A stretch of 64,000 nt of DNA from an uncultured bacterium (GTDB lineage Bacteria > Abyssobacteria > SURF-5), in assembly GCA_964607485.1 (NCBI GenBank), contig CAZSKP010000012.1, positions 57,142-121,141 on the forward strand, given 5' to 3'. A program made the translations under genes and the position numbers. How positions within the stretch are numbered: position 1 is the stretch's first letter; every line of letters starts with the position of its first letter. The notes beneath the pieces are model-generated. The model made no database searches, was not told where the DNA came from, and worked only from the letters and a program-made list of their open reading frames with translations. Shown in pieces: positions 32,549 through 61,356 of the stretch.

Positions 32549-34051
32549 TCAAGCGAACTTCGCCGGGTCGTACTCGGGCACGTAGTCTTCCATGAGAGGA
32601 AAGTCGTCCAGGTTTCGCGCGAACGCCGCCCGCAGGAATGAATCCAGCCACCAGAAGATATCCGTTTGCCGGATGATGGCCCTGAGCCTCTTCATCCGCG
32701 ACCGTCGTTCCTCAATGCCCATCTCGACCGCCTGGTGGATTGCGTTCGACACTTCCTCGATGCTGTACGGGTTCACCAGCAGCGCCCCCTTCTGCAACTG
32801 GACCGCCGCGCCGGCAAACTCACTGAGAATCAGCACGCAGTTTTCCTCGATGCTGCACGCGCAATACTCCTTGGCCACCAGATTCATGCCGTCCTTCAGC
32901 GGAGTTACGAGGGCGATTTCGGCGACGCGGTAGTAGGCAAGCAGTTCATTATGCTCCAGCTGCCGGTATATGTAGTAGATCGGAACCCATCCGGACATGG
33001 TAAACTGACCGTTGATTTCGCCCACGAGCCGTTCGATATCCTTCTTGAGGCCGCGGTATTCGGGGATTTCCTCACGGCTCGGCACGACGACCTGAATGAA
33101 GGTGAGCTTCTCGCGCAGCTCCGGGAAGCGTTCCATCGCATCCCTGAACGCTTCGAGCCTGTTGGTGATGCCCTTGGTGTAATCCAGACGGTCGATGCCG
33201 AGGATAAGCTGGCGGTTTGGCAGGTCCTCGTGGACGAACCACGCCTGCTCGGCGACTTCCCGGCTCGACGCCTGTTTCGCAAACGTGTTGTAGTCGATGC
33301 TGATGGGGAAGCTGCCGAGGCGCACCTCCCTGTCTTCTACCCGGCCGGTGAGAACCTGACCTTTTCCCCTTATTGGAACATCTTTGCGAAGAGCGCGGGT
33401 GCACTGAACGAAGTTGCGTCTGTCACGCAGCGTCTGAAATCCGATGAGGTCATGCTCGAGCAGCGCGCCGAGAATCTCGAATCGCCATGGAAGCTTGAGG
33501 AAGAAATCGAGCTGAGGGAAGGGAATGTGCAGAAAAAAGCCGATCCTGTTCTTGACGCCCATGCCGCGTAATTCACGCGCCACGGTCAAGAGATGATAGT
33601 CGTGAATCCAGATATAATCGTCCTTCCTGATGTTCTTTGCGATTACCTCTGCGAACTTGCGGTTGACCTTGCGGTAGGCCGACCAACATTCCGGGTCGGG
33701 GATTTTGCGAGGCTGAAAATCATGGAAGACGGGCCACAGAATTTCGTTGGAGAATCCATAATAGAATTTGTTCTTTTCCTCGGTGGTCAATGTGACCGGC
33801 TTGAATGTGTATCCTTCCCTCCTGGTCGCCTCGGCCAGAACATCCTCGACCTCTATTCCCTCTTCCGCCAATGTCCCCGGCCAGCCGATCCATAATCCTC
33901 CGCGGTTTTTCAACACGGGGGCCATCGCGGTGACCAACCCGCCGGAGCCGGATTTGACCTCTAATTGACCGTCATGGCTCCTGTTCACCACTATCGGCAG
34001 GCGATTGGATACGATGACAAGCCGACTGTCGGACAATTTCGTCAACGGCAT
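32549..34051 (-). CDS. otsA: Trehalose-6-phosphate synthase (GT20)
   Basis: VSNRLP, GGLVTA, WIHDYHL, FFLHIPFP, DRLDYTKG, DGMNLVAKEY, LSEFAGAA. Confidence 0.93.
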   Translation of the reverse strand: MPLTKLSDSRLVIVSNRLPIVVNRSHDGQLEVKSGSGGLVTAMAPVLKNRGGLWIGWPGTLAEEGIEVEDVLAEATRREGYTFKPVTLTTEEKNKFYYGFSNEILWPVFHDFQPRKIPDPECWSAYRKVNRKFAEVIAKNIRKDDYIWIHDYHLLTVARELRGMGVKNRIGFFLHIPFPQLDFFLKLPWRFEILGALLEHDLIGFQTLRDRRNFVQCTRALRKDVPIRGKGQVLTGRVEDREVRLGSFPISIDYNTFAKQASSREVAEQAWFVHEDLPNRQLILGIDRLDYTKGITNRLEAFRDAMERFPELREKLTFIQVVVPSREEIPEYRGLKKDIERLVGEINGQFTMSGWVPIYYIYRQLEHNELLAYYRVAEIALVTPLKDGMNLVAKEYCACSIEENCVLILSEFAGAAVQLQKGALLVNPYSIEEVSNAIHQAVEMGIEERRSRMKRLRAIIRQTDIFWWLDSFLRAAFARNLDDFPLMEDYVPEYDPAKFA

Positions 34052-34106
34052 GAGCTCACCCCCGGAGCTTTTATAGTTTTCTCCAATATTTCCGGCCGAT
34101 GAGACG

Positions 34107-34901
34107 TCATTTATCTATCTCGCACGCTTCCGCCCAATTCGAGAGGAACTCCAAGAGCTCCTCGGGCGGCGTAATCCACAGGTCGGCTGCGGTCGAGCGG
34201 AACTCGTCGCGCACAAGAACGCCCAATCCTCTCCCCTTGATGGCGCCGAACGCATCCTCATCCGTCAAATCATCGCCCAGATAGGCGGCAGCCGTATCCC
34301 CTCCCATTTCGGCAAAGACCATATCGACCGCGAAGCCTTTGTTTCTGCCGGGAATGCGAAGCTCGACGCCTCCGTCGAACTCGTGCAGATCGAGCTCCTC
34401 GTTCCAGGCCGAGAGAGTCCATTTCTTTTGCACTTCGTTGCGAATCGTTTTGACCTCGCCCGCTTCCAATCCCCTCCAATGAACCGCGAGGCAGGCGGGC
34501 TTGTGCTCGACCCGCTCGGCCAGTCCTGCCCTTTCAATCCAGGCGTCGGCTTCGGCAAGTGCTTTCAGGGAGGTTTCCTCCAGTTTGCCAATTTCATACG
34601 TGCCGTCGGGCCTTAGCTGCTCCCAGCCGTGAGACCCCCAGATTTCGGGCAGGCGCTTGAGTCCGAGGAGCGGAATCAAATCCTTCGTCCATCGCCCGGT
34701 GATGAGTATCACGCGGGTACTTTCCGCATCCACGAGCGTCTGCAATATCTCGCGCACGCCGGGATAAGGGGTCGCTCTGTCGCGCTCTACGGTGAAGGGA
34801 GCGAGGGTTCCGTCGTAATCGAGGAGCAGCGCGCGCTTGGCGGCCTCTGAGACGCGCCGGAAAAACCTCTGCGGCTCGAATTCTGGCTTGAGAATTTTCA
34901 T
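34107..34901 (-). CDS. otsB: Trehalose-6-phosphate phosphatase (HAD)
   Basis: LDYDGTLAP, ITGR, GSHG, NKG, GDDLTDEDAF. Confidence 0.92.
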   Translation of the reverse strand: MKILKPEFEPQRFFRRVSEAAKRALLLDYDGTLAPFTVERDRATPYPGVREILQTLVDAESTRVILITGRWTKDLIPLLGLKRLPEIWGSHGWEQLRPDGTYEIGKLEETSLKALAEADAWIERAGLAERVEHKPACLAVHWRGLEAGEVKTIRNEVQKKWTLSAWNEELDLHEFDGGVELRIPGRNKGFAVDMVFAEMGGDTAAAYLGDDLTDEDAFGAIKGRGLGVLVRDEFRSTAADLWITPPEELLEFLSNWAEACEIDK

Positions 34902-35002
34902 GATTCGGCTATCCGTGTCTGTGTTGTTTGTATCGGGTGAATGTCGATTATCCGCAGGAACTTCTCTGCTTCATTCGCCCCTGCGGAGCTAAGAATAAGC
35001 GC

Positions 35003-36244
35003 TCATCCCAACTCGATCCTGCTCTTGTTTCCATACAAGAGCGAGACCATCAGGGTGAGCGACTCGCGCAGTTGCCGGGTAAGGAGGAAGTTGTCCCTGA
35101 CGAAGTGTCTGGCCTTCTCCCCCATCTCGAAAATTTTCTCGCGATGACTGAGCAGGTAGCGAACGCGCAGCGCAACGCCCTCGGCCGAATCGACGCGAAA
35201 ACCGGTGTGGTGGTCAACAACCTGCAGTCGAATGCCTCCGGTGTTTCCCCCAATGACGGGCTTGCCCTTCCACATCGCTTCGGTCACCGTGAGGCCGAAT
35301 CCTTCCTTGATGGATTTTTGCAGCACGATGTCGGCGGCGCGTTGCAACGCGTTTATTATCCGATGCGAGTCGGGGGGCAGCAGCAGGATATGGATGTCAG
35401 GATCATCGGCGCCGGCTTCCCTGACCTCGGCAAGAACGGCGTCTCCCTCGGGATCGTCCGAAGCTCCGCCGCCGGCCAGGACCAATTGCAGGGCCGGGAT
35501 AAATCTCTTGGCCAACTTGTAACCGCGTATGACGCCCACCGGGTCCTTGAACCGGTCGAAACGGGACACCTGAACGATGACGGGCCTCGTGCGGTCGATT
35601 CCGAAACGCTCGCACACCTGCCCGACTTCACCCTCGTCAAGTTCTATGTTCTTTTCGCTCAACGGGTCGATGCTGGGCGGAATAATGAATTGCGGATGGG
35701 AAAGCCTCTGCTCGAAGTCGGCCAGCGAAAAAACGCTCGCGTCGTATCCGGCGACGAACTCGCGTAGATATTTCCACACGGGCCGGAACGGCCGGCTGAT
35801 ATCGATGTGACAACGCCATATCCATTTGCCCTTGCGATTCGGGCACAATTTCAGCAGTGAAGCCGGTTGAGGGTCGTGGATGAACACAAAGTCGGCGCTT
35901 TCGAGAGCCGGCCGGAGCACCTCCGCGTTCTTGGCGTTTGTAACCTCGTATATTTTGAGCAACGCCTGCGGAATTTCGACCTTTTCGCCCTGCAGCCCGT
36001 TATGGAAACCCTTGGTGCATTGGAAGAAATCGCCGTTTCCGGAAATTACTTCCCAATGGGCGTCAACGCCCAGGTCTCCCATGATGGGCACCAGCTTCGT
36101 CAAGATCTCGGCGACTCCTCCGCCTTCACGAGTCGAATTCACGTGAACAACTTTCTTGCCCTCAAGCGGCTTCGCCAATTGCTGGAGGTGGCTGATGACG
36201 TCCTCACCTACAACTTCCGCATATTGTTGCAGAACATTCGTCAT
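35003..36244 (-). CDS. treT: Trehalose glycosyltransferring synthase-like GT4
   Basis: HVNSTREGGGVAEIL, IHDPQP, WRCHID, PSIDPLS, QVSRFDRFKDP, EGFGLTVTEAMWK. Confidence 0.85.
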   Translation of the reverse strand: MTNVLQQYAEVVGEDVISHLQQLAKPLEGKKVVHVNSTREGGGVAEILTKLVPIMGDLGVDAHWEVISGNGDFFQCTKGFHNGLQGEKVEIPQALLKIYEVTNAKNAEVLRPALESADFVFIHDPQPASLLKLCPNRKGKWIWRCHIDISRPFRPVWKYLREFVAGYDASVFSLADFEQRLSHPQFIIPPSIDPLSEKNIELDEGEVGQVCERFGIDRTRPVIVQVSRFDRFKDPVGVIRGYKLAKRFIPALQLVLAGGGASDDPEGDAVLAEVREAGADDPDIHILLLPPDSHRIINALQRAADIVLQKSIKEGFGLTVTEAMWKGKPVIGGNTGGIRLQVVDHHTGFRVDSAEGVALRVRYLLSHREKIFEMGEKARHFVRDNFLLTRQLRESLTLMVSLLYGNKSRIELG

Positions 36245-36918
36245 GACACGGAATCTCCGAAGTAGCCCCTAAATACGGAAGCGAGTTGATCGCGGAGTTC
36301 GCTCAAGGTCGGGAAAAACGGGTCCACGTCGGCAAGCTGGCTGATCAGGACTTTGTATTTCTTTCCATAGCCGGAGAGCCACGCCCTGAAGTCGTCAACC
36401 TTGTCGGGAGTACGCCGGCGCGCATCGATGAAATGGTAAAAAATGCTCCCTATCGACATATGAGGAATCGCGGTGACGAAGTCTTTTGCCGCAGTGAGCT
36501 GGCGATGCGTGTCGAAAACCACCAGATGCGTGGTGATGAAGCTGAACTGCTTATCCGGCCGCGACCATGGGACCATCTCGCTCTCGTCCAGCCTCTCCTC
36601 GATTATGTCAATCAGCTTCTGGCGCAGAGCTTCCAGGTCGTCGAAATCCGTCGGGTCGACCACGCCCAAACGCTCTGCGAGCTTCTCGTCGTGGAGCCCG
36701 CGGTAGGCCCACGCGGCAAAATCGTTGTTGTATTCAGGGTCGTCAAACCGCGGCCGCAGCAGACCTCCCCAAAAATGGTGGTAGATGCTGTCAGGGTCCA
36801 CGGTCAGAAGGTGTTCTCGCAACTCCCTGAGATTATGCGCCTTTTTGCCCGTGGCTATGGCAATCAGCGCACAGTCCTTGACCGCGAACGGCTGGACTTT
36901 TGTCGCCTTGGGAGGCAT
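36241..36918 (-). CDS. DUF5752-like protein (TreT-associated), internally duplicated
   Basis: SIYHHF…NDFAAW…VDP and SIFYHF…DDFRAW…VDP repeats; ATGA coupling to treT. Confidence 0.75.
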   Translation of the reverse strand: MPPKATKVQPFAVKDCALIAIATGKKAHNLRELREHLLTVDPDSIYHHFWGGLLRPRFDDPEYNNDFAAWAYRGLHDEKLAERLGVVDPTDFDDLEALRQKLIDIIEERLDESEMVPWSRPDKQFSFITTHLVVFDTHRQLTAAKDFVTAIPHMSIGSIFYHFIDARRRTPDKVDDFRAWLSGYGKKYKVLISQLADVDPFFPTLSELRDQLASVFRGYFGDSVS

Positions 36919-47749: not shown

Positions 47750-49753
47750 ATGCGAAGATACCTATACGCGACGAGCTGCTATGCGCTGTTTATCGTTGCC
47801 CTGCATTTCTTGAGCGGCCGCTTTTCGCCGCTGTCCAGTTGGGGTTTCTACCACCTGAACGAATTCCCGAAGTCGGTCCGCATACTCCTCTGTCTTGTCG
47901 GCGCAGTGGTCTGTCTGCCGCCGATAAATTCGCTGCTGTCGGCCGCGCTGTCGAAGATGGCGGACAGAGCGGCAAAGCTGAAAGCCGGATTCCCCCCGCA
48001 CGTCGCATACATCCTGATAAGCGCGCTCTTCGCCGTGCTGTTCTGGTGGCTGCGCAGCGGGAACATCTTCCTCGGCGACGGCGTAACGCTGGCGCAGATC
48101 GTCCGCAGCGACGAGGCGTTGAAACACTACGTGGGCGGCTGGGCCGGACACGTGACTTCCCACCAGATACTTGATTTCTGGATCGGCCGCAACCTGCACA
48201 GGATTCTTTCGGGCGTTCTGAAATTCGAGCCGTACGACACCATTGCGCTCCTGAGCTGCGTTGCGGGAGCGCTCTTCTGCTTTGCCGCGCTCGAAATCGG
48301 ACATTTGCTCTGGGACGACTGGCCGCACAGGCTCGGCTTCGCGAGCGTCGTCTTCACCACTGGAGCGATGCAGCTTTTCTTCGGCTATGTGGAGACGTAC
48401 GGACTCTCGGCTGCGGCCCTCGCGCTCTTCTGCCTCACAACTTTGCTGTACGCGCGCGGCCGGTGCGGCATATGGCTTCCCGCCGCGCTGCTTGCGCTGA
48501 GCGCGTCGCTGCACCTGCTCACCTTCGGCGCGGGGCTCGCGCTGCTGTTCGCGTGGGTGCACCGTTCCCGCGAGCGGGGGAAGTACTGCATGGTTGAGTT
48601 CGCCCTTATGGCATGTGTGCCTCTCGTGGTGGTGGCAATATATTTCGTCATCCTGCACTCGCTCGGATTCTCGGTTAATGAAATCTTCTTCTCAGGCGCT
48701 CGCGGAGAATACGAGGGCGTCTTTTTCCTCGCGCTGTCCAGGAGGGGTTTACCGCTGGAACGATACTCCCTTTTCTCGGTCGCCCACCTGATCGACATAT
48801 TCAACGAGATTGTGCTGGTTTCGCCGTTCGGGCTTTTCCTGTGTGTTGTGTCGCTTCCCCGATTCCTGAAGGCGGACCGCGTCGCAAGGCCGGAGGCGCT
48901 GATCCTTCTCCTCACGTGTGTCGTTTACCTTGGGGTGACGTTGACGGCCGCGCCGCTGTTGGGCGCGCGAAAGGATTGGGATGTGTTCGCTCCGCCGTGG
49001 ATTTTCATCACGATGCTGGGCGCGTACATGCTGATGCGGGCAATTCCCGACGGCGCCGCGGTGCGCAGAATACTCATCATCGTCGTGGCGGTGTCGCTGG
49101 TGCACTCCGTCCCGTGGATACTTTCCAACGCGCGCATCGACCTCGAAAAATATCTGGAGTACAGGGGCGAGGGCAAATCGTTCGAGCAGGAGGGCCTGAT
49201 TGAACAGGCGAGCGAAAACTACGAGAAGGCGCTCGCGATAAACTTCACGCCGGAACTCGCCTACAAGGTCGCGGGGCTTCAGATAAGAAGCGGCCGGTTG
49301 TTTGAGGCGGTTGACCTTCTGAAGAAGGCGATTCGCGAGGAAAACCGATCGGAGCTGGCAATATTTCTCGAACAGGAGGATGCGCACTACCTGCTCGGCT
49401 CGACTTTCTTGGGACTGGGAAAAACCGATGAGGCCATCGCGGAATTCAAGAAGGCGATTGACCTGTGGGAGTTCCGGCACAACAAGAGCTTCCGCCACTT
49501 GCCCGATGCCTACTACCATCTCGGCGTGGCATACATGAAGGCGGGCAACTACGCGGCCGCCGAGAAGGCGTTCCTTTCGGCGCTGGAGACGGGCGGCGAT
49601 ATTCCGCTCGCGCACCTCGCGCTGGGCGAACTGTACGCTCGCTATCTGAACAAGCCCGACGCCGCGCGGGAGCACCTCCGGAAATATCTCGAAACGAATC
49701 CAGGTGACGAGCAGGCGACGGAATTGCTCGAAGGACTGAAATCCGATGCCTGA
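47750..49753 (+). CDS. Polytopic membrane protein with C-terminal TPRs; possible GT-C glycosyltransferase
   Basis: About 13 TMs, FLGDG loop, GYVETYG, several TPR motifs. Confidence 0.7.
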   Translation: MRRYLYATSCYALFIVALHFLSGRFSPLSSWGFYHLNEFPKSVRILLCLVGAVVCLPPINSLLSAALSKMADRAAKLKAGFPPHVAYILISALFAVLFWWLRSGNIFLGDGVTLAQIVRSDEALKHYVGGWAGHVTSHQILDFWIGRNLHRILSGVLKFEPYDTIALLSCVAGALFCFAALEIGHLLWDDWPHRLGFASVVFTTGAMQLFFGYVETYGLSAAALALFCLTTLLYARGRCGIWLPAALLALSASLHLLTFGAGLALLFAWVHRSRERGKYCMVEFALMACVPLVVVAIYFVILHSLGFSVNEIFFSGARGEYEGVFFLALSRRGLPLERYSLFSVAHLIDIFNEIVLVSPFGLFLCVVSLPRFLKADRVARPEALILLLTCVVYLGVTLTAAPLLGARKDWDVFAPPWIFITMLGAYMLMRAIPDGAAVRRILIIVVAVSLVHSVPWILSNARIDLEKYLEYRGEGKSFEQEGLIEQASENYEKALAINFTPELAYKVAGLQIRSGRLFEAVDLLKKAIREENRSELAIFLEQEDAHYLLGSTFLGLGKTDEAIAEFKKAIDLWEFRHNKSFRHLPDAYYHLGVAYMKAGNYAAAEKAFLSALETGGDIPLAHLALGELYARYLNKPDAAREHLRKYLETNPGDEQATELLEGLKSDA

Positions 49754-51435: not shown

Positions 51436-52257
51436 CTACAGCTCGACTTTGAAGAGGCCTTTGAGCGAGTAGCCGGCGGCTATCGAGGCGACGAAGAAAA
51501 CGACGAGCCAGTGCACGTTCCAGCCGAGCACCTTGATCGTCTGCGGTGGAAAATCGACCCGTATTTCCTCCAGTCCCGACCCTTTCGGCAGCGGGTCCTG
51601 GCCGGGGGCAAAAAGCATCGCCTCTAGGCCCGGCTGCGTCCTCGCGGTGTACACGCGCCGAACCTCGTCGGAAACAAGTATGGGCTCGTCCACGCGCTCG
51701 TCTCCGACGAGAATCGAAAGCTTGTGCTCGCCCTCCCGAACGGCGCCGATGCGGAAGTTGACCTCCTCTCCTCCCATGCGAAGAAGCGGCGTCTCCATGC
51801 GCAGCCCGTCGTCGGTCTCGACCGAGACGGGGAGTTTCTCGGCGGCTGCGGTTTCAATGAGTTTCAGCTTGACCAGCGCGGTCTCGCCGGGCCTGAGCGG
51901 CCTGGAGGCGTAGCGTATTCCCAGTTGGACCAGGATCAGAACGACGGGGACAATCATGACCAGCATCGGGACGACCGAGTATTTCATGTACGTCAGGTTG
52001 GTTCGGAGAATCCGCTTCTGCGCGTCGAGCATAAGGCCGAGGTCGTCTTTGAACAGACGCACCTCCAGGAAGTAGGCGCTGATCTTGTCCTTTGTCCTCC
52101 TGATGGCCGATTGGTTGGAGGTGTATTTGAAAATCACGACCATCACGATTCCCGTCAGGACGGAGACCGCCAGCAGCCCCCATATGGGGGAAAGGTCTCT
52201 GAACGGCAGAAAGACCAGGTCGAACGCCGCCGTGATGATTCCGTTGACAGCCTGCAT
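51436..52257 (-). CDS. Membrane protein, DUF106/EMC3-TMCO1 (Oxa1 superfamily)-like, with soluble beta-rich insertion
   Basis: Amphipathic N-helix, TM1, coiled segment, TM2 (PMLVMIVPVVLI), beta domain, terminal TM (HWLVVFFVAS…LKGLF). Confidence 0.55.
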   Translation of the reverse strand: MQAVNGIITAAFDLVFLPFRDLSPIWGLLAVSVLTGIVMVVIFKYTSNQSAIRRTKDKISAYFLEVRLFKDDLGLMLDAQKRILRTNLTYMKYSVVPMLVMIVPVVLILVQLGIRYASRPLRPGETALVKLKLIETAAAEKLPVSVETDDGLRMETPLLRMGGEEVNFRIGAVREGEHKLSILVGDERVDEPILVSDEVRRVYTARTQPGLEAMLFAPGQDPLPKGSGLEEIRVDFPPQTIKVLGWNVHWLVVFFVASIAAGYSLKGLFKVEL

Positions 52258-52278: not shown

Positions 52279-52470
52279 TCAGGAAATGTAGCCCAGCCCC
52301 TGAAGCTTCTTCTTGATTTCCTCTTCCGAGTCGGATTCCTCGAGACGCTCGATTTCGCGTTCGAGCGCGTGCGTGATGAATTCTTCGACCGAGGAATATC
52401 CGGCCAGATCGGAATAGTGCTTGACCTTCTTGAGCAGTTCCTTGTCGAGTTTTATCTTAGAGCCGAACAT
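52279..52470 (-). CDS. 63-aa protein, ribbon-helix-helix-like N-terminus and LxxLGYI tail
   Basis: GGGAGG RBS; KIKLDKELL…GYSSVEEFITHALE; ends EEEIKKKLQGLGYIS. Confidence 0.8.
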   Translation of the reverse strand: MFGSKIKLDKELLKKVKHYSDLAGYSSVEEFITHALEREIERLEESDSEEEIKKKLQGLGYIS

Positions 52471-52560: not shown

Positions 52561-54546
52561 TTAAAACACCGGCCTGCCGGTCATGTTGGCCGGCGGCGTT
52601 ATGCCGAACTCCATCAATATCGTGGGCGTGAGGTCGCGCAGGCGCGGGTCGGCGATCTTCAGCTTGCGGTTCGCCAGAAACACGCCCGGAACCACTTCGG
52701 CGGCGATGCAGTGGTCGCCGCTCCACCTGTCGTCGTTGTCGGTGAACAGTTGTTTCGGAAACGAGCCGATGGCGGTCTCCCACGACGCGCGATACCCACG
52801 GTTGTAGCCGATGATGGCGTCGGGAACGATTCTCTCGTCGGGATTCGTGTACACCTCCCTCGTCTTGTACACGCGCAGTATCGCCTGCTCGCCCGTCTTC
52901 GGGTCTCGAACTTCGAGCAGCTTTCGGGCGATCTCGTCCAGCAGCGCATCCTTTTCCGATGGATCGACCACTCCCCTGCCCTCGCGTCCTCTTTCGTTGA
53001 TGTACAGTCCGTTGAGGCCGAGCGCGTAGGCGCGGGTGCCCGCCCAATTGACGTTCGAGTAGAACTCCCCCTCGGTGTCCTTGGTGAGGGCGATGTATCC
53101 GTTATCCTTGAGCCAGGTGCCCAGGTTGAAGGCGCGATAAAACGGAGCGAACCCGTGGTCGGACATCACGATGACCGTGGTATCGGAATCGGCCTTCGCG
53201 AGCGCCTTGCCGAGCACTTTGTCCATCTCCATATAGATGTCATACAGCACATGCCCGTACTTCTGGGCGACTTCCTTGTCATAGAGGGGATGCTTCGGAT
53301 CGATCAGCCACCACAGCATGTGCGAGTTCTGGTCGAGGCTGCAGAAGTAGAAGAAGAGGAGACCCGAATCGAAATTCTCGAGCACGTAGTCATACATCGC
53401 CAGGCGTTCGCGGAGCACGATGCCGGTCTGTCCGAGGTAGTCTTCTACGCCGAGCACGTCGGAGGAAAACGCCTTCGTGTCCTCAGGCATCCCCTGCGTG
53501 TAGAAACAGCCTACCTTCTTCGCCAGTTTGGCGGCATAATCGTCGGGCGTGGATATGGGCAGAGCCGGGTCGAGGGGGTCGATGTTTATCGGGGAGACGT
53601 ACAGGCCGAAGCTGGGCCTGACCTCTTTCAGGTAAAACCGGCATATCCCGCTCACGCTCTGAAGAAACGGAACGGCCACGAATTTCACATGCACCCAATC
53701 GCTCCATTCGCCGACGTTAAGCAGTACTTCGCTGTCCTGAACGACTATCTTCGCAACGGAATTTTCCGGGTCGACGTGGACGGTGAAGTCCACGGTCAGC
53801 TTCGGCTGCTCCTTCTTGAACGTGTTCTTGGGGCCGACGAGCTGGGCCTCGACCGTGTTGTTGCGAACGTCCACCGGATAGATTTTTCCGCCGGAGACGT
53901 CGTCCTCTTTAAATCGTTCGGGCGCGTCGGTGTAAAAGGAGAACGTTCCATACGTGCCGAGGATGTCGGGCGTGCCCATTCCGGAGAGCGAGCGCCCCTC
54001 GCATTCCACCGGCGGAAAATTCGCGGGTATCTTGATGACCGTCGTCGGCACTCCGTTTTCTTCCAGAATCTGCCAGAAGGCCTTGCCCCTGCGCAGCAGC
54101 GTTGTCTTGCCGCCGGAGAGCGGTATCACCCAGTCGCCGAGCGATATGGTGCGCTTGGGGTCCTCGGTCTTGCTGGTGGAGAGATACGGCAGGTATGTTT
54201 CGGGCTCGCGATGAATGAAATCGAAGATGCCGTGCCCGCCGGGGTCCATGCCGGTGATGAAATCCGACCACGCCACCGGACTCTGGGGCGGAATGCTCGT
54301 GCCGAGGGGTACGAAGAAGCCTTGTCGGGCGAACTCGGCGAAGTTGGGCATCTTGCCGTCGGCGATCATTCGTTTCAGAATGTTCGGGTCCATCCCGTCG
54401 ATGCCGAGCACAATCACTTTCTTCTTCGGAGGGGCCGCGTGTCCGACTCCGCATGAGACGAGCGACACGCAAAGGATGAAAAGTAAACTGAGCGCGGCGG
54501 CCGCGACCAATGTATGCTTCTTAACGCCGTTCATCGACGATGTCAC
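52561..54546 (-). CDS. Alkaline phosphatase/NPP-superfamily protein, exported (signal peptide or lipoprotein)
   Basis: Signal (…LVSC / GHA|A); GIDG, PPQSPVAW (Ser nucleophile), DQNSH, SDHG, GDH. Confidence 0.85.
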   Translation of the reverse strand: MTSSMNGVKKHTLVAAAALSLLFILCVSLVSCGVGHAAPPKKKVIVLGIDGMDPNILKRMIADGKMPNFAEFARQGFFVPLGTSIPPQSPVAWSDFITGMDPGGHGIFDFIHREPETYLPYLSTSKTEDPKRTISLGDWVIPLSGGKTTLLRRGKAFWQILEENGVPTTVIKIPANFPPVECEGRSLSGMGTPDILGTYGTFSFYTDAPERFKEDDVSGGKIYPVDVRNNTVEAQLVGPKNTFKKEQPKLTVDFTVHVDPENSVAKIVVQDSEVLLNVGEWSDWVHVKFVAVPFLQSVSGICRFYLKEVRPSFGLYVSPINIDPLDPALPISTPDDYAAKLAKKVGCFYTQGMPEDTKAFSSDVLGVEDYLGQTGIVLRERLAMYDYVLENFDSGLLFFYFCSLDQNSHMLWWLIDPKHPLYDKEVAQKYGHVLYDIYMEMDKVLGKALAKADSDTTVIVMSDHGFAPFYRAFNLGTWLKDNGYIALTKDTEGEFYSNVNWAGTRAYALGLNGLYINERGREGRGVVDPSEKDALLDEIARKLLEVRDPKTGEQAILRVYKTREVYTNPDERIVPDAIIGYNRGYRASWETAIGSFPKQLFTDNDDRWSGDHCIAAEVVPGVFLANRKLKIADPRLRDLTPTILMEFGITPPANMTGRPVF

Positions 54547-54653: not shown

Positions 54654-56840
54654 CTAGCTATCCGCCTTCGCAGCGGTTTCGGATTCCTCGAGAAGCGATG
54701 TGCCGTCCATGTGTGCGGGGATTGGAATTCCGAAAACATCCAGCACGGTAGGCGCGACATCCGTCATGTGCACGTTTTCGCCGCGCATTTTCCGGTTGGA
54801 GAAGAACACTCCGGGAACAAGCGAGGGGTCTATGCAGTGGTCCCCGCTCCAGCTCTTGGTGTTGTCGTCAAAGACGACCTCGCTGACCATCCCGGTCACG
54901 GAATCCCATGAGGCCCGATAGCCGGCATTGTAGCCCACAATGATGTCGGGCGCGTTCTCTTTGTAAGGACCCGAATATATGCGCGCGCTGTCGTACAGCT
55001 TGGTGATTCCAACCTCGCCGGTTTCTTCGTCCCTCAGACCGGAAAGCTTCTGGATAAGCTCCTTCTTCAACGCATCGGCCTGTTCGCCCGGCTCGACGGT
55101 TCCCTTTGCCTCGCGTCCCTTTACGTTCAGAAAAATGCCGCCCAGCCCAATTGCAAAGGCCTTTGTCTTTGTCCAGTCAACTCCCTTGAACCACTGACCG
55201 GCGGCCTCGCCGTCTTTCAGGTGGAGATATCCATTCAGGTAGAGCCAGGAGTTGAGGTTGACGCCCCGACGGAACGAGTTGAATCCGTGGTCCGACATAA
55301 TCACGAGCACGTCGTTCTCACGCATCTTTTCGAGCACCCGGCCCACGAGGCCGTCCATCTTCATGTAGAGGTTTACGATGGCTTCCTTGAAGTTTTCGGT
55401 GTCCTTGTCGCGGTTGGCCGGATGACGCTCGTCGAGGTAGCGCCAGAAGAGGTGTTGAATCCTGTCGGTGATGTCGAAGACGCACACGCACAGGCCGCGC
55501 CGCGTCTTATCCAGCGCGTTGAAGAACATCTTCTCGCGTTCCTCGTGGATGAGGTAACACTGCTCTTCGAATTCCTTTTCGCCGATGATGCGCTCGTTGA
55601 TGGCCCACGTGTCCTCGGCGAGCCCCAGCGTCGCATATCGGCCGAGCAGTTTCGAGAGATAAATCGAGTAGATGAACGGGTGCGAGATCGGCAGCGCCGG
55701 CTTGGACGGGTCGATGTTTATCGGCGTCACATACAGCTCGAAATGCGGCTCGGTCTCCTTGAGCAGGAAGCGGCAGACGCCATACACCTTGATGCCGGGA
55801 GCGGCCTTGAACCCGAGCCGGACCCAATCGGAATATTCCCCCTTCCGGAGGTTAATCGCCTGACCGTCGATTCTGAGCTTGGCTGCCTCCGAATCGGCCC
55901 CGAGCGTGACCTCGAACGGAATCCTCATCTCCGAGGACTTCTTGAGAAACGTGTTTTCCGGACCGCCGATGAAAGAGCGCACCGTGTTGCCGTTTCGCTC
56001 CACCCGAATCTCCGTGCCGCCGGTGTATCCGCCTTCGCCCCGCTCGTGGGTCGTGTAATGGGTGAACGACCCCTGCGTGCCCTTGAGGTCGGGAACGCAC
56101 ATGGCGGAAAGCATCACGCCCCTGAACTTCTCGGGCGGAAACGTGATGGGAACCCTGAGCACGGTGGAAAAAATTCCGTGCTCGCCCAAGATGCTCCAGA
56201 AGGGCTTGCTCTTGCGCAGGAGTCTTATTTCCGGCTTGCCCAACGGAATCGCATATTTGCCCAGCGACAATGTCCTGCGCGCCTTCCCGATGTGCGCGGA
56301 GGAGAGGTCGGGCAGGTACGTCCTCTTGTCGCGCGTGAGAAAGTCGTAAATATTGTGGCGGCCGGGATTGACGCCCGTCATGAACGAAGACCAGGCCACG
56401 GGCGAAATGGGAGGACAGGTGGTGTTGAGCCTCGCATACGTGCCCGTCTCTTTGAGCCTGGCGAAGTTGGGCAGCTTTCCCTCGGAGATGAGTCTGTCCA
56501 CCATGTTGGGGTCGAGGCCGTCCAGTCCGACGATGAACATCCGGTCGGCGCTGCTGCGGCCATACGCCTTTTTCTTCCGCAGCCCCCTGAACAGGTATCG
56601 CACCGGCCATGTCAGCATCAGGAAGAACGCGAAGAACACGGCGAGGAAGACCACGAAGAACGACGTGAGAAACGCAAAGCCGGCGCCCGGGCCGATGTAG
56701 GCGTGTGCGTCGCGGGGAAATGCGACCAGCCACGCTGCGGCCAGCACAAGCGCGGCCGCCGCCCGCGCGGCCCTTTGCCGCGTTCCAGCCTCGACGGGCC
56801 TCTCAGCTTTCCATGTATTGAAGAATGATTTCGGCGACAT
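54654..56840 (-). CDS. Alkaline phosphatase/NPP-superfamily protein with N-terminal AHA-YIGPG + TM anchor
   Basis: AHAYIGPGAG, TM, RKKK; GLDG, PPISPVAW, DRIQH, SDHG, GDH; start set at ATG 56840 (uncertain). Confidence 0.85.
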   Translation of the reverse strand: MSPKSFFNTWKAERPVEAGTRQRAARAAAALVLAAAWLVAFPRDAHAYIGPGAGFAFLTSFFVVFLAVFFAFFLMLTWPVRYLFRGLRKKKAYGRSSADRMFIVGLDGLDPNMVDRLISEGKLPNFARLKETGTYARLNTTCPPISPVAWSSFMTGVNPGRHNIYDFLTRDKRTYLPDLSSAHIGKARRTLSLGKYAIPLGKPEIRLLRKSKPFWSILGEHGIFSTVLRVPITFPPEKFRGVMLSAMCVPDLKGTQGSFTHYTTHERGEGGYTGGTEIRVERNGNTVRSFIGGPENTFLKKSSEMRIPFEVTLGADSEAAKLRIDGQAINLRKGEYSDWVRLGFKAAPGIKVYGVCRFLLKETEPHFELYVTPINIDPSKPALPISHPFIYSIYLSKLLGRYATLGLAEDTWAINERIIGEKEFEEQCYLIHEEREKMFFNALDKTRRGLCVCVFDITDRIQHLFWRYLDERHPANRDKDTENFKEAIVNLYMKMDGLVGRVLEKMRENDVLVIMSDHGFNSFRRGVNLNSWLYLNGYLHLKDGEAAGQWFKGVDWTKTKAFAIGLGGIFLNVKGREAKGTVEPGEQADALKKELIQKLSGLRDEETGEVGITKLYDSARIYSGPYKENAPDIIVGYNAGYRASWDSVTGMVSEVVFDDNTKSWSGDHCIDPSLVPGVFFSNRKMRGENVHMTDVAPTVLDVFGIPIPAHMDGTSLLEESETAAKADS

Positions 56841-58119
56841 CGGTGATGTTAAGGTCTTCCTTCGGTTGTTGCGCCGACCACAGGAACGCGTCGTCCCACG
56901 TATGCATACCCGTGAGCGCGCTTCGTCCGAAAAGCTCCTTCCGCTTCGGCGAGCCCTTGATGTCGAACCCGTATTTCGAGACAGCCACGAGGTTCGGCCC
57001 GCGCTCGGCGAAGGGGCCGTCGTATGCCTCGTCCCTCTCAAAAACTCTGTCTATTACGCGCTCACCGTCGCAGGTGAGCTCGGCCAGCCCGGCCGCGATG
57101 TCGGCGGTGATGGGCTTCACGTCCTCCGGTTTCACGCAGCCCTTGGGAAATTTCCCGACGAGGTTGAGGTATATGCGCGACGGGTCGAGCGCGAACGCGC
57201 GCGTGCCCTCGCCTATCGCCTCGATAGTGTCGGCTTCGTCCGATTCGAGCGTCAGGAACCCCTCCTGCTTGAGCCATGCGCTGAGATAAAACTCGTTCTT
57301 CACCCCGACGAAGCCGTGGTCGGAGAGGATGAAGAAACCGGGCGTGGGCTCCTCGGCGTCCACAAGCCGCTTGAATCGTGAATGAATCCGCCCGATGAAG
57401 GAATCGACTGTGCGGTAGTAGTTCAAGAACGCATCGTGACACGGATGCGTCGTGTCGTCGAGCGCGTCCCACAGGTAGTGGTGAAGCCTGTCGGTCCCCG
57501 TGACGACGACCTCGAAGTAATCCCATGCCTCGTTATCCCAGAGGAAGTTGACGGCGCGCTCGCGGGCTTCGAGGGTCCTGGCGAGTTCGGTTATCAGGTA
57601 CGAGTGGTCGTCGCGCGCGCGGAGCGTGTCGATGTCGATGATGTAGCCGCCCTGTTCCAGTTTCGGAAGAAGCGAGGGCGGATGAACCGCCTTGCGCAGG
57701 CTGAGCGCGACGAATCCGGAGATAAGAGCGCCCTCTATCGGACGGGCGGGATAGGTTGAGGGCTGATTGACGACGACGCTCCTCTTTTTCCTCTCCGCGA
57801 GCCTGTCCCAGATGGTGGGAGCGCGAAGGTCCTTGAACGACGGGAATCGCAGGCTGTAGGATTCGGGCTTGAGGTCGGTGAACCCGAAGATCGAATGCCC
57901 TCCCGGATTCTTTCCCGTCATGAAGCTCGGCCAACTGACGGCAGAGATTTCCGGCAAGGTGACCCGCATCTTGCTCAGATGGCCGGCGCGGACGATTTCG
58001 GCCAGTTCCGGCATGGTGCCGTCTTCGGTGAAGCGTTTCAAGAGCGTATGGGGAACTCCGTCGAGTCCGACCACACACGCTCGCTTTTTTTTCTTACTCC
58101 AAAATGGCGCCACAAGCAA
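56803..58119 (-). CDS. Alkaline phosphatase/NPP-superfamily protein, cytoplasmic
   Basis: GLDG, PEISAVSW, DRLHH, SDHG, GMH; no signal peptide. Confidence 0.85.
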   Translation of the reverse strand: MLVAPFWSKKKKRACVVGLDGVPHTLLKRFTEDGTMPELAEIVRAGHLSKMRVTLPEISAVSWPSFMTGKNPGGHSIFGFTDLKPESYSLRFPSFKDLRAPTIWDRLAERKKRSVVVNQPSTYPARPIEGALISGFVALSLRKAVHPPSLLPKLEQGGYIIDIDTLRARDDHSYLITELARTLEARERAVNFLWDNEAWDYFEVVVTGTDRLHHYLWDALDDTTHPCHDAFLNYYRTVDSFIGRIHSRFKRLVDAEEPTPGFFILSDHGFVGVKNEFYLSAWLKQEGFLTLESDEADTIEAIGEGTRAFALDPSRIYLNLVGKFPKGCVKPEDVKPITADIAAGLAELTCDGERVIDRVFERDEAYDGPFAERGPNLVAVSKYGFDIKGSPKRKELFGRSALTGMHTWDDAFLWSAQQPKEDLNITDVAEIILQYMES

Positions 58120-58128
58120 TTCGACCGC

Positions 58129-58731
58129 TTAGATATAACCAAGAGAACGCAGTCGTTCCTTAATTTTTTCCTCTTCTTCCTCGGTGTATTCCTCTTCGGT
58201 CCCTGACGGGGGAATGTGATTCATGAGCTCGAGCGTCCTAAGAATCTTGTTCACGCTCTCCTCGACGGATTCCTTATCGGTCTCGACGACTATCTCCGCG
58301 TTCTCCGGTTCTTCATACGGGTCGTCCACGCCGGTGAAATTCTTGATCTCGCCCCGCTCGGCCTTCTCGTAAAGGCCCTTCGGGTCGCGCTCCTTCAGAA
58401 CCTTAAGCGGGCACTTGCAGAACACCTCGACGTATGAGCCGATGAGTTTGCGGTTTTCCGCACGTATGTTGCTGTAGGGCGAGATTGCGGCGGCGATGGC
58501 GACGACATCGTTGCGGGTCAGCAGGTGGCACACGAAGCCGATGCGCCTGATGTTGATGTCGCGGTCTTCCTTCGAGAATCCCAGCCCTTTGCTCAAGTTT
58601 GTGCGAATCACGTCGCCGTCGAGCACTTCCACCTTCAGGCCTCGTTCGAGCAGTACCCCCTTCAGTTCGCGAGAAAGCGTCGTCTTGCCGGAGCCCGATA
58701 GACCCGTGAACCAGAGCGTGAAACCTTTCAT
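58129..58731 (-). CDS. cysC: Adenylyl-sulfate (APS) kinase with acidic LxxLGYI C-terminal extension
   Basis: WFTGLSGSGKTT, LDGD..R, LGFS, ISPY, RDPKGLY, FTGVDDPYE; tail EEEYTEEEEEKIKERLRSLGYI. Confidence 0.95.
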   Translation of the reverse strand: MKGFTLWFTGLSGSGKTTLSRELKGVLLERGLKVEVLDGDVIRTNLSKGLGFSKEDRDINIRRIGFVCHLLTRNDVVAIAAAISPYSNIRAENRKLIGSYVEVFCKCPLKVLKERDPKGLYEKAERGEIKNFTGVDDPYEEPENAEIVVETDKESVEESVNKILRTLELMNHIPPSGTEEEYTEEEEEKIKERLRSLGYI

Positions 58732-58750: not shown

Positions 58751-60127
58751 CTAGATGATGGATTTGCCGATCATGTTGTCAGGAATGTCAATGTCGAAAT
58801 ATTTCAGCACCGATGGGGCGATATCGTATATGGAATAGGTTTTCGGGCCGCCGGGCTTTTCCCCGGGGATGTGCCAGATGAAGATGCCCTCCTCGGCATG
58901 GTTGGCGTCGTCGGGGCCGGTATCGTTCTCGTACATGTACACCGAACCCACGCCGACCGATCCGGCCGAGCGCCAGTCGAGGTTGCCCAGGTACACGATG
59001 AGGTCGGGCGGGATGTTGTTCGTGACCCGGTACACCTCCTCGGGCTTGAAGACCTTGGTGTTGATGCACCTTCCGTTTTCGTCCTCGATGGCTTCAAGGC
59101 GCGCCTTGAGTTCGTCGCGGGCGGTCTCGTACTGTTCTTTGGGTATGACTCCATCGGGCTCGCGGCCCTGAACGTTCATGAAGATGCGGCTGTAGTATCC
59201 CCCCTCACCCCATACCTTTGTCTTGCTCCAATCGACCATGTCAACCTTGAATCTCTTTCGCTCGCTCGGGCGTTCCTTGAGCGTAAGGTAGCCCTCGCGC
59301 TGAAGCCACTCGTTTATGCATATCGCTCCGACCATCGTCTTTGCGCCGTGGTCGGAGACGACCATGACCGACGTGTCGGACGGCAGCGCGTCGAGCGTCC
59401 TCCCAATCTCGGCGTCGAGGCTCACGTAGTAATCGTGTATCACGTTCTCGTACTTGTTGCCGGGCTCATACAGCCGGTGGTTCTTGTCGGAGTAGCGCCA
59501 GAACCCGTGGTGTATGCGGTCGATGCCCATCTCGACCATGATTGCGAAGTCGTACGAATCCTTCTGAAGGAAGTGTCGAAACGCCTTGAAGCGGCGCTCG
59601 GTCATCACGTAGATGGCGCTCAGAAGCTCGTCCTTGCGGTCGGTTCGGAAGTTCTCGACGTCTATGATGTAATTGCCGTCGGCGACCTGGTCGAGCTCGG
59701 CCTTGACCTCGTCGGGATACGTGAACGAGACGTCCTTGCCGGGAGTGAGGAAGCTGGCAACGAGCATGCCGTTGAGCGGCTTGGGCGGATATGTCTGCGG
59801 CACGCCGAAGACCAGTGAACGCATCCGGTTGCGGGAGAGATGGTTCCACAGCGTCTTCGCCTTGACATACTTGGCGTTGGCGAAATACAGGTCTTCGTAG
59901 CCGTAGCTGCGGCGGTTGCGGAAGCCGTAGAAGCCGAGCATGCCCGGGTCGTGCGAGGTCATCATCGACGTCCACGCGGGCACGGTGATGGGCGGCAGGG
60001 TCGATTTGAGCGGCCCATGAAGCCCGTCGCCGACCAGACGCTTTATGTTCGGCAGGTCGCTTATCCACTTGTCGAAAACGAGGCTCGGCTCGGCGCAGTC
60101 GAGCCCCAGTATCACCAATTTTCCCAA
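58751..60127 (-). CDS. Alkaline phosphatase/NPP-superfamily protein, cytoplasmic
   Basis: GLDC, PPITVPAW (Thr nucleophile), DRIHH, SDHG, ANH; AGGAG + TTG start. Confidence 0.88.
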   Translation of the reverse strand: MGKLVILGLDCAEPSLVFDKWISDLPNIKRLVGDGLHGPLKSTLPPITVPAWTSMMTSHDPGMLGFYGFRNRRSYGYEDLYFANAKYVKAKTLWNHLSRNRMRSLVFGVPQTYPPKPLNGMLVASFLTPGKDVSFTYPDEVKAELDQVADGNYIIDVENFRTDRKDELLSAIYVMTERRFKAFRHFLQKDSYDFAIMVEMGIDRIHHGFWRYSDKNHRLYEPGNKYENVIHDYYVSLDAEIGRTLDALPSDTSVMVVSDHGAKTMVGAICINEWLQREGYLTLKERPSERKRFKVDMVDWSKTKVWGEGGYYSRIFMNVQGREPDGVIPKEQYETARDELKARLEAIEDENGRCINTKVFKPEEVYRVTNNIPPDLIVYLGNLDWRSAGSVGVGSVYMYENDTGPDDANHAEEGIFIWHIPGEKPGGPKTYSIYDIAPSVLKYFDIDIPDNMIGKSII

Positions 60128-60138
60128 AGAATCGGCTC

Positions 60139-61293
60139 CTATTCTCCGTTGCGGAAAGCCTTGAGCAGGATTTCGGCCACCTCAGGCCTTGTGAACTCCG
60201 GCGGCGGCGTCTGGCCGCGTCGGAGCATTTCGCGCACCTTCGTTCCGCTGAAGACGATGTGGTCGCGCGAGCTGTGCGGACACGTTTTCATCGAGGCCAT
60301 ACTGTCGCATGTATTGCAATAGAACGCGTTATCGAAAAACAGCGGGGTGATCCCGATTTCGTCCGGCTCGAATTCGCGGAAGATATGGTGCGCGTCGTAA
60401 GCCCCGTAATACGAGCCGACGCCCGCATGGTCCCTGCCCACGATGAAGTGGGTGCATCCGTAGTTCTTCCTGATGATGGCGTGGAATATCGCTTCCCTGG
60501 GGCCGGCATAACGCATCGCGGCCGGGAAGACGGACAGCGCGACCCGCGTTCTCGGATAATATTTTTCCAGCAACGCCTCGTAACATTTCATCCGCACTTC
60601 CGGCGAAATATCATCATCCTTGGTCGCTCCGACGAGCGGATGAATGAGGATGGCATCGACGATTTCGAGCGCGCATTTTTGGAGATATTCGTGGGCGCGA
60701 TGAATCGGATTACGCGTCTGGAAGGCCGCTACCTGACGCCAGCCCTTCGCCTTGAAGAGCACGCGCATTTCCTTCGGGTCGAGCCTGTAGTTGTTCAGGA
60801 CTTTGTGTTTCGGACGGTTGATGAGACTCACCTTCCCGCCCAGGTACACGTCGCCGAGGCTCTGAAGGTACTGGTTGCCCGGGTGCGCGACGTCGGCTGT
60901 TCGCAGAACGGTCAGCGCCTCGTGCTGCTTGTCAACCTCGAACTTGTCCTCGAGATGGAGAACGCCCAGGAGACCGTCGCTTTCGTCCAGCAGGGCGACC
61001 TCGCCGCCGACCTCGTACTCATCTCCCCTCCCCTGCTTGATGGAAAGGGTGACGGGGATGGTCCAGGGCAACCCCTTCGACAGCCTCATGAGGTCGAGGA
61101 CGCTGACGTAGTCCTCTCTCGTCATGAAGCCCTCGAGCGGGCTCATGGCGCCGGTGGCGATCATCTCGAGGTCGCAAACTTCCCGGGCGTTGAGCACGAC
61201 GGCGGGCATGTGCGACGCTCGTTTTTCCAGAGCCTCGCGCTCCTGTCCCTCCGCGGTTCGATTCACGAGTTGTCCGCCGTGCGGCTTAATCAT
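60139..61293 (-). CDS. sat: Sulfate adenylyltransferase (homo-oligomeric Sat type)
   Basis: PHGG, SPLEGFM, AFQTRNPIHRAHE, MRYAGPREA, GRDHAG, SGTKVR. Confidence 0.95.
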   Translation of the reverse strand: MIKPHGGQLVNRTAEGQEREALEKRASHMPAVVLNAREVCDLEMIATGAMSPLEGFMTREDYVSVLDLMRLSKGLPWTIPVTLSIKQGRGDEYEVGGEVALLDESDGLLGVLHLEDKFEVDKQHEALTVLRTADVAHPGNQYLQSLGDVYLGGKVSLINRPKHKVLNNYRLDPKEMRVLFKAKGWRQVAAFQTRNPIHRAHEYLQKCALEIVDAILIHPLVGATKDDDISPEVRMKCYEALLEKYYPRTRVALSVFPAAMRYAGPREAIFHAIIRKNYGCTHFIVGRDHAGVGSYYGAYDAHHIFREFEPDEIGITPLFFDNAFYCNTCDSMASMKTCPHSSRDHIVFSGTKVREMLRRGQTPPPEFTRPEVAEILLKAFRNGE

Positions 61294-61356
61294 ATAGAAA
61301 GACCGTGTTCGCAAACAGAGTTATCGTATCTTCTTCCTAACTCAAGATAACATATT

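Follow-up and report, generated by a model that had tools for sequence, protein, structure and literature searches.

A portable C-terminal tail on an APS kinase and its predicted docking on an alkaline-phosphatase-superfamily neighbor in an uncultured SURF-5 bacterium

Described systems and the CysC extension

The closest described counterpart of the element analyzed here, a C-terminal tail on the adenylyl-sulfate (APS) kinase CysC, is found on the COG3379/PF01663 proteins, an uncharacterized group with the JGI name 'predicted AlkP superfamily phosphohydrolase/phosphomutase', which carry the same 19-residue motif at their extreme C-terminus with an invariant L..LGY. The CysC gene lies in a stretch of 64,000 nt (the window) from an uncultured bacterium of SURF-5 (Abyssobacteria), assembly GCA_964607485.1 (genome completeness 97.5%), contig CAZSKP010000012.1, positions 57,142-121,141 of the forward strand. 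The arrangement differs from that of COG3379 in that the tail is attached to an APS kinase via a short linker of 8 residues, and not to a PF01663 catalytic domain, and in that the neighboring genes of the alkaline phosphatase (AP) superfamily are tail-less. It is proposed, as a reading with a slightly better than even chance of being right, that a portable tail supplied in trans docks in the active site of an AP enzyme and couples the synthesis of 3'-phosphoadenosine 5'-phosphosulfate (PAPS) to this AP-fold enzyme. Literature searches on COG3379, on the C-terminal LGY motif and on PAPS-dependent sulfotransferases of the AP superfamily returned no published description of the tail.

Four further systems were compared. 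The acidic C-terminal tail of single-stranded DNA-binding protein is a flexible acidic stretch with a hydrophobic or aromatic end and a free carboxylate, and plugs pockets of its partners; the CysC tail differs in that its predicted partner is a catalytic bimetal site, and in that paralogs of this partner bear the peptide in cis. In the fused PAPS synthases (Sat-CysC and CysN-CysC; PDB 2gks, 1x6v) consecutive steps of sulfate activation are also physically coupled, but by whole-domain fusion, whereas for CysC the proposed link is a short peptide docking into a third enzyme. For the C-terminal Tyr 'acyl shuttle' of MBOAT-SGNH pathways, DltX/PatA, it was proposed that the Tyr moves between two active sites, and there too an invariant Tyr near the C-terminus is either part of the enzyme or comes on a small protein of its own; the motif of DltX/PatA is FXYXXF, membrane-embedded and extracytoplasmic with acyl chemistry (PMC12148441), whereas the CysC tail ends RSLGYI on a soluble kinase. 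Agl30 (VNG1056C) and Agl31 (VNG1057C), shown genetically to be AP-superfamily sulfotransferases of Halobacterium salinarum N-glycosylation, are AP-fold proteins (a membrane-bound and a soluble one) placing sulfate onto glycans, and offer a precedent for AP paralogs using PAPS; compared by description only, they are sulfatase-like and not PF01663-like, were active with C-terminal tags, and have no tail described in the sections of the source at hand (PMC11980604).

The features on which the comparison turns are given below in window coordinates, with pLDDT denoting the predicted local distance difference test score.

58129..58731, minus strand: CysC, adenylyl-sulfate kinase of 200 aa, assigned by profile matches; no other APS kinase was found in the genome
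58129..58197, minus strand: CysC tail, residues 179-200, EEEYTEEEEEKIKERLRSLGYI plus stop (last 22 codons and stop codon); helix predicted at 184-197, followed by G198-Y199-I200 with free carboxylate
58198..58221, minus strand: linker NHIPPSGT, residues 171-178, joining the kinase fold's last helix to the tail; pLDDT ~76-77
60139..61314, minus strand: Sat, ATP sulfurylase (PUA_2 + ATP-sulfurylase), with which the Sat-AP458-CysC module begins
58751..60127, minus strand: AP458, cytoplasmic PF01663/COG3379-type AP enzyme, tail-less; predicted tail receptor

Pfam APS_kinase (PF01583) matched residues 2-150 of CysC at 205.2 bits (cut-off 21.1), and NCBIfam NF002059 matched residues 2-171 at 260.6 bits (cut-off 244). 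The AlphaFold2 (AF2) monomer model, built from an alignment of 57 rows, was superposed on 5cb8 by Foldseek with a TM score of 0.85 and a root-mean-square deviation of 1.0 over 175 columns, with the tail outside every aligned range. As solved APS kinases align to CysC only up to about residue 171-178, residues 172-200 are an extension of ~29 residues beyond the APS-kinase fold; the limits of profile and structure alignments bear out the initial annotation, in which CysC was read as continuing past its normal end. The end LGYI was retained in 119 of the best 120 CysC homologs (75-95% identity, 198-201 aa), the remaining one ending two residues early, and some of the tailed homologs come from sources named Hydrogenedentota, Abyssubacteria or Poribacteria. 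A chance origin of the tail was ruled out by this conservation together with the predominance of the AP superfamily among LGY ends of the genome.

In ordinary CysC proteins the native last helix often ends ..EESxxKIxxKLxELGY[IL] (loci L061, L062, L067, L072, L074 and L089; proteins P0399-P0502), and many tailed CysC proteins have both the native LGY helix and the tail. 'LGY' alone is therefore not foreign to CysC, and the special feature is the additional second copy. None of the 120 longer CysC fusions listed had the extended tail; the native ..LGY helix was present in 42 of them (40 CysC-Sat or Sat-CysC, and two CysC-only ORFs, i.e., open reading frames). The native last helix of CysC closely resembles the portable tail, and shared ancestry and convergence are both conceivable.

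Carriers of the tail and distribution of the tailed kinase

For a census of LGY ends, all ORFs of at least 50 aa in the window's genome were used, spurious ORFs included (n = 29,725). Ends of the form LGYx0-3 were found in 27, of which 16 were judged convincing and the other 11, mostly short or poorly matching, were discarded by eye. The convincing ORFs other than CysC and one 63-aa ORF of its operon, 14 in number, all belonged to the AP superfamily (10 sulfatase-type PF00884 and 4 PF01663), the genome totals being 18 PF00884 places and ~9 PF01663 genes. The stricter pattern [RKE]L..LGY[ILVM] had 8 matches in open frames of at least 100 aa, and 7 of these lay 0-1 residues from the stop. For L003, a tailed COG3379 paralog, 117 of the best 120 homologs (43-92% identity) ended LG[YF]x0-3 and two more ended IGYME or MGYL, with a freely varying linker ahead of the tail; as 5,848 homologs of L003 pass E 0.001, thousands of uncharacterized AP-superfamily proteins carry the LGY tail.

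CysC homologs and 119 COG3379 homologs, both aligned on the terminal Tyr, gave the common logo Y(-17)[ST]xEExxx[IV](-9)xx[RK](-6)L(-5)[RK]xL(-2)GY(0)[ILVM]. Tyr at position 0 was present in 119/119 sequences of the CysC set and 119/119 of the COG3379 set, with no Phe in these 238 sequences, and L-5, L-2 and G-1 were invariant or near-invariant in both. Because Y-[ILVM] is followed by the chain end or by one D/E (rarely G) in the tail logo tallies, a carboxylate would always stand one or two residues beyond the terminal Tyr.

The tail had been described initially as typical of sulfatases and COG3379 phosphodiesterases. Within the genome this stands, given the 14 AP-superfamily carriers; for CysC itself it needs narrowing. 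The tails of the sulfatase type (..L[KR][AS]LGY[ILVM][QDN]) have fewer residues and no Y[ST]xEE start, and their carriers have signal or transmembrane segments and are therefore probably extracytoplasmic. The CysC tail satisfies every conserved position of the 119-homolog COG3379 logo, Y[ST]xEE..[IV]xx[RK]L[RK]xLGY[ILVM], and because of the differences in length and start it is classed, by its motif, as the COG3379 form and not the sulfatase form.

A scan with one genome per species gave 80 CysC loci from many phyla. A match through residue 200 was scored as tail present (52 loci), and 28 loci were without the extension, of which L073 was left out as there was no CysC ORF (n = 27). AP neighbors were counted as AP ORFs of at least 250 aa inside the locus. 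AP ORFs were found in 45/52 tailed loci vs. 2/27 untailed loci (L080 and L086), and only one (L051, 560 aa) of the 100 AP neighbor ORFs in the 45 loci itself had the tail, by a hand count that included pieces of broken genes. The correlation of tailed CysC with tail-less AP neighbors anticipated in the initial annotation was thus observed, as an association that is not absolute. The tailed loci without an AP ORF were L022, L023, L024, L034, L048, L053 and L065, with full 10-kb flanks on both sides only in L024 and L065. Four such genomes were checked: three had a tail-less AP458-type ortholog elsewhere (692-805 bits), which in one of the three adjoins a second tailed CysC, and the fourth had only a paralog of 186 bits. 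No AP458-type ortholog was found in five untailed-CysC genomes, where the best match was 118 bits. In the window's phylum the AP458 type was present in 9/9 tailed-CysC genomes vs. 0/2 others, these being close kin and not independent. Decayed CysC tails were seen in L042 (..LGHL) and L059 (..KKSYL), loci with AP795-/AP661-type genes only and no AP458-/AP438-type gene.

The Sat-AP-CysC operon is conserved in over a dozen bacterial phyla and was also found in one archaeal metagenome-assembled genome; it has no assigned chemistry. The archaeal genome, a Hydrothermarchaeota archaeon (L058), has a tailed CysC with an AP458-type neighbor, and so the module is not restricted to bacteria.

Among AP458 homologs (12,738 matches at E 0.001) the best 149 representatives, at 33-71% identity, were used, and the tail was present in cis on 17 of these 149. 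Natural fusions were read from Pfam architectures as follows.

P0249: Sat-AP fusion
P0250: APS_kinase-AP-tail fusion
P0308: AP-pyruvate-kinase barrel-Sat fusion
P0366: AP-pyruvate-kinase barrel-tail fusion
Other AP458 relatives: AP joined to glycosyltransferase family 2, nucleotidyltransferase or methyltransferase

By these architectures, Sat, CysC and the tail are shuffled together with the AP458-type domain as a single functional set. The pyruvate-kinase barrels of P0308 and P0366 may serve in ATP regeneration for PAPS synthesis.

Predicted docking on AP458 and the readings compared

In an alignment with the four tailed paralogs of the same genome, which extend ~48 residues more, the four AP neighbors of the operon (AP458, AP438, AP795 and AP661) stop at the end of the core, in agreement with the absence of a tail first noted from their endings (GKSII, QYMES, AKADS and GRPVF, respectively). 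The putative catalytic set of AP458 is D10, T48, D203, H207, D259, H260 and H410. Of these, T48, D10 and D259-H260 align with the Xanthomonas NPP 2gsn, T48 corresponding to its nucleophile Thr, and D203..H207 and H410 are presumed metal ligands from the DxxxH pattern of the family. All seven are invariant in 28 AP458 orthologs and retained in all eight paralogs.

A complex of AP458 (123-row alignment) with CysC residues 171-200 was predicted alongside three controls. The interface score ipSAE was 0.71, 0.78 and 0.83 (median 0.78) for the AP458-tail pair and at best 0.02 for the controls; the mark applied is reached by 116/157 solved complexes and 2/215 mismatched pairs, and is only a rough calibration for self-made alignments. 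Contact agreement among runs was at least 75%, with a partner pLDDT of 66-69. The prediction supports binding and is not a demonstration of it. A sequence search of solved structures with L003 found nothing, and the pose was therefore not copied from a known structure.

In the predicted pose the amphipathic tail helix would lie along AP458 residues 81-86, 126-133 and 156-161, and Gly-Tyr-Ile-COO- would extend to catalytic residue Thr48 and to the metal site at D203/H207. Predicted contacts of Y199 are I47, T48, F69, G310 and Y311; L197 and G198 would contact R204 and H207, and R193 would contact D156. The predicted AP458 interface comprises I47, T48, F69, R70, Y81, F82, N84, K86, F126, L127, P129, G130, V133, D156, N159-R161, R204, H207, E308-Y311, R386 and D406, and that of the tail E180-Y182, E185-E187, K189-K191, R193, L194 and S196-I200. 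Conserved tail positions (-9, -6, -5, -2, -1, 0, +1) are those in contact, and variable positions (-4, -7, -11, -15) are not; on the AP458 side 13/25 contact residues are invariant in the 28 orthologs vs. 79/458 overall. For AP458, the outcome expected of a multimer model, a Tyr entering the metal site, was obtained as a prediction, with Tyr199 against the catalytic Thr48 and next to the metal ligand His207.

On this basis the last 19-22 residues of CysC would be a portable C-terminal peptide whose usual home is the end of cytoplasmic COG3379 (PF01663) enzymes, on a variable linker. The AP enzymes of the operon would have lost the tail, which CysC and the 63-aa CopG-like protein would carry instead, and the tail would occupy, in trans, the groove in which a tail-less AP paralog takes up its substrate. 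The PAPS-making kinase would thereby be tethered at the active site of an AP-fold enzyme that probably uses PAPS, with possible channeling, and the Sat-AP458-CysC module would form a single sulfation unit. By analogy with Agl30/Agl31 the AP paralogs may be sulfotransferases, and an AP-fold enzyme coupled to PAPS synthesis is probably one. Tyr199 may act as a plug or regulator or as a covalent carrier; a Tyr that is never replaced by Phe and a carboxylate close to it are compatible with either role. The initial suggestion of supply in trans to a tail-less AP is favored, computationally, by synteny, fusions, the 17/149 cis tails and the predicted AP458 complex, and is qualified by a link that is not absolute. 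With the AP active site as a concrete predicted partner, an anonymous docking tag becomes a testable mechanism. If PAPS-dependent AP sulfotransferases are indeed held to their PAPS source, this would explain envelope-glycan sulfation in uncultured lineages with few or no canonical sulfotransferases. In the window's genome the canonical sulfotransferases amount to one Sulfotransfer_3 gene, on a different contig from the operon.

Several observations weigh against docking in trans. The complex prediction covers one AP paralog (AP458) and one method, and conservation of the contact residues is expected anyway, as they line the active site whatever ligand binds. A tail bound at the active site would be a competitor of the substrate, so that the pose does not imply simple channeling, and the sulfatase-type LGY tails, being on exported proteins, cannot share a cytoplasmic partner. 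In the AF2 monomer of L003 (116 alignment rows; pLDDT 87.4) residues 542-569 were at 41-50 and helix 552-564 was unplaced; docking of the tail in cis on its own AP domain is thus unsupported. In the CysC monomer (pLDDT 91.8) the tail helix 184-197 was at ~90 and the last ten residues averaged 90, which suggests that the tail can pack on CysC itself.

The distribution was also looser in a sample of 101 genomes of a second phylum (one of them, G057, flagged unpublished), in which AP458-type matches were taken at a cut-off of 1e-80. Tailed CysC was present in 12 genomes and the AP458 type in 16, both together in only 6, leaving 6/12 tailed-CysC genomes without an AP458-type match and 10 genomes with the match and no tailed CysC. 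The six genomes with the CysC tail only had no AP within 5 kb of it, and all five of those tested had a Sat-AP-AP operon elsewhere, its first AP of 447-462 aa tail-less and its second of 542-603 aa. Among the ten AP458-only genomes the AP458 type was tail-less in 7/7 examined, and another tail-bearing ORF lay within a few kb in just 3/7. A strict either/or rule, under which the tail is always on the AP or on CysC, is broken by these seven orthologs.

The second AP of the Sat-AP-AP operon ends in a variant tail, ..SEDEEQLIKDKLKGWGY[ML] (..KLKGWGY[ML]), with Trp in place of the Leu before Gly-Tyr (L125-L131; genomes G035, G047, G092, G101 and G110).

An unlikely alternative is that the tail is a self-packing or oligomerizing helix, which packs on its own protein or a sister subunit and stabilizes dimers without an AP partner; in CysC it would then be a duplicate of the protein's own last helix. 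The high pLDDT of the tail helix in the CysC monomer fits this, as does the native last helix, which in L061 equals the tail at 11/17 positions (counted by eye). It is harder to reconcile with the occurrence of one 19-residue motif on a kinase, an AP and a CopG-like fold, which are unrelated, or with the long variable linker of the COG3379 tail and its undocked state in the monomer model. It also leaves the pairing of tailed CysC with tail-less AP, and the CysC-AP-tail fusion, unexplained, and the control with an unrelated receptor scored only 0.02.

It is improbable that the terminal Tyr acts as a carrier that is loaded in one AP site (e.g., O-sulfated from PAPS via a Thr48 intermediate) and moved to another paralog. 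A related and similarly doubtful scheme, drawn by analogy with DltX/PatA, is a sulfuryl/phosphoryl swinging arm, in which an AP-fold enzyme would load the Tyr using PAPS produced by the kinase that bears it, and the sulfo-Tyr would be an aryl-sulfate donor for other APs; the tail would then be, with as little probability, a protein-borne sulfate carrier, which COG3379 enzymes have in cis and which CysC and the 63-aa protein provide in trans. Aryl sulfate esters are natural substrates of AP-fold sulfatases, and the acidic surroundings of Y182 resemble eukaryotic Tyr-sulfation sites. The absence of Phe among 238 sequences, the predicted placement of Y199 against T48 beside H207 and the complete catalytic set in all eight paralogs would suit a carrier, although the invariant Tyr can also be accounted for by a pseudosubstrate that makes a hydrogen bond or a metal contact. 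The supply either in cis or, on an ORF of microprotein size, in trans parallels DltX/PatA, but the motif differs from the FXYXXF of DltX (PMC12148441). AP661 and the tailed sulfatases also look exported, out of reach of a cytoplasmic arm.

Recruitment of tail carriers to a common scaffold, such as a tetratricopeptide repeat (TPR) protein, a compartment shell, or the machinery of polysaccharide assembly or its tyrosine kinase, is very improbable. The four tailed COG3379 genes of the genome do sit in Wzx/Wzy/BY-kinase/glycosyltransferase clusters, and 4/7 AP458-type loci without tailed CysC have no nearby tail carrier. Against a third-party tag, the strict motif matches of the genome are nearly all terminal and none lies ahead of a TPR, LGY is absent from the TPR protein encoded at 47750-49750, and only AP genes are common to the loci, with no other shared partner gene. 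Neither a microcompartment shell nor an encapsulin gene was found in the 97.5%-complete genome (PF00936 and PF04454 without match), and an encapsulation or cargo tag was rejected for this genome; a membrane-targeting helix was set aside, as the stretch ahead of the helix is strongly acidic.

Operon neighbors and other features of the window

The order of genes on the minus strand is SDR epimerase, PlsC-like acyltransferase, Sat, AP458, CysC-tail, AP438, AP795, AP661, 63-aa ORF and 273-aa membrane protein. The genes downstream of CysC are as follows.

56803..58119, minus strand: AP438, second cytoplasmic PF01663 paralog, tail-less
54654..57041, minus strand: AP795, PF01663 paralog with two N-terminal hydrophobic segments, tail-less
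52561..54546, minus strand: AP661, PF01663 paralog with an N-terminal signal/lipobox-like segment, tail-less
52279..52470, minus strand: 63-aa CopG/RHH-like ORF ending SEEEIKKKLQGLGYIS, second tail carrier of the operon
51436..52257, minus strand: 273-aa membrane protein, conserved and weakly matching EMC3/TMCO1 (DUF106-like), last gene of the operon

The true start of AP795 is uncertain, because its ORF overlaps AP438. No curated family match was found for the 63-aa ORF or the 273-aa membrane protein; the automatic Atlas names were 'putative CopG family transcriptional regulator' for the former and a weak EMC3_TMCO1 for the latter. The 63-aa ORF was found in 16 related loci beside an AP661-type gene, always with ..GLGY[IL] at the end or one residue from it, and was accompanied by the 273-aa membrane protein in 13 related loci.

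Elsewhere in the window, positions 900-30000 of the plus strand hold a polysaccharide cluster with a Wza-like exporter, Wzz/BY-kinase, two Wzy-like genes, Wzx, many glycosyltransferases of family 4 and a priming transferase. This cluster also has four B12-binding radical-SAM genes and resembles the clusters of the tailed COG3379 genes. Positions 32552-36918 of the minus strand hold a trehalose block (OtsA of glycosyltransferase family 20, trehalose phosphatase and a TreT-like synthase), followed by a DUF5752 gene.

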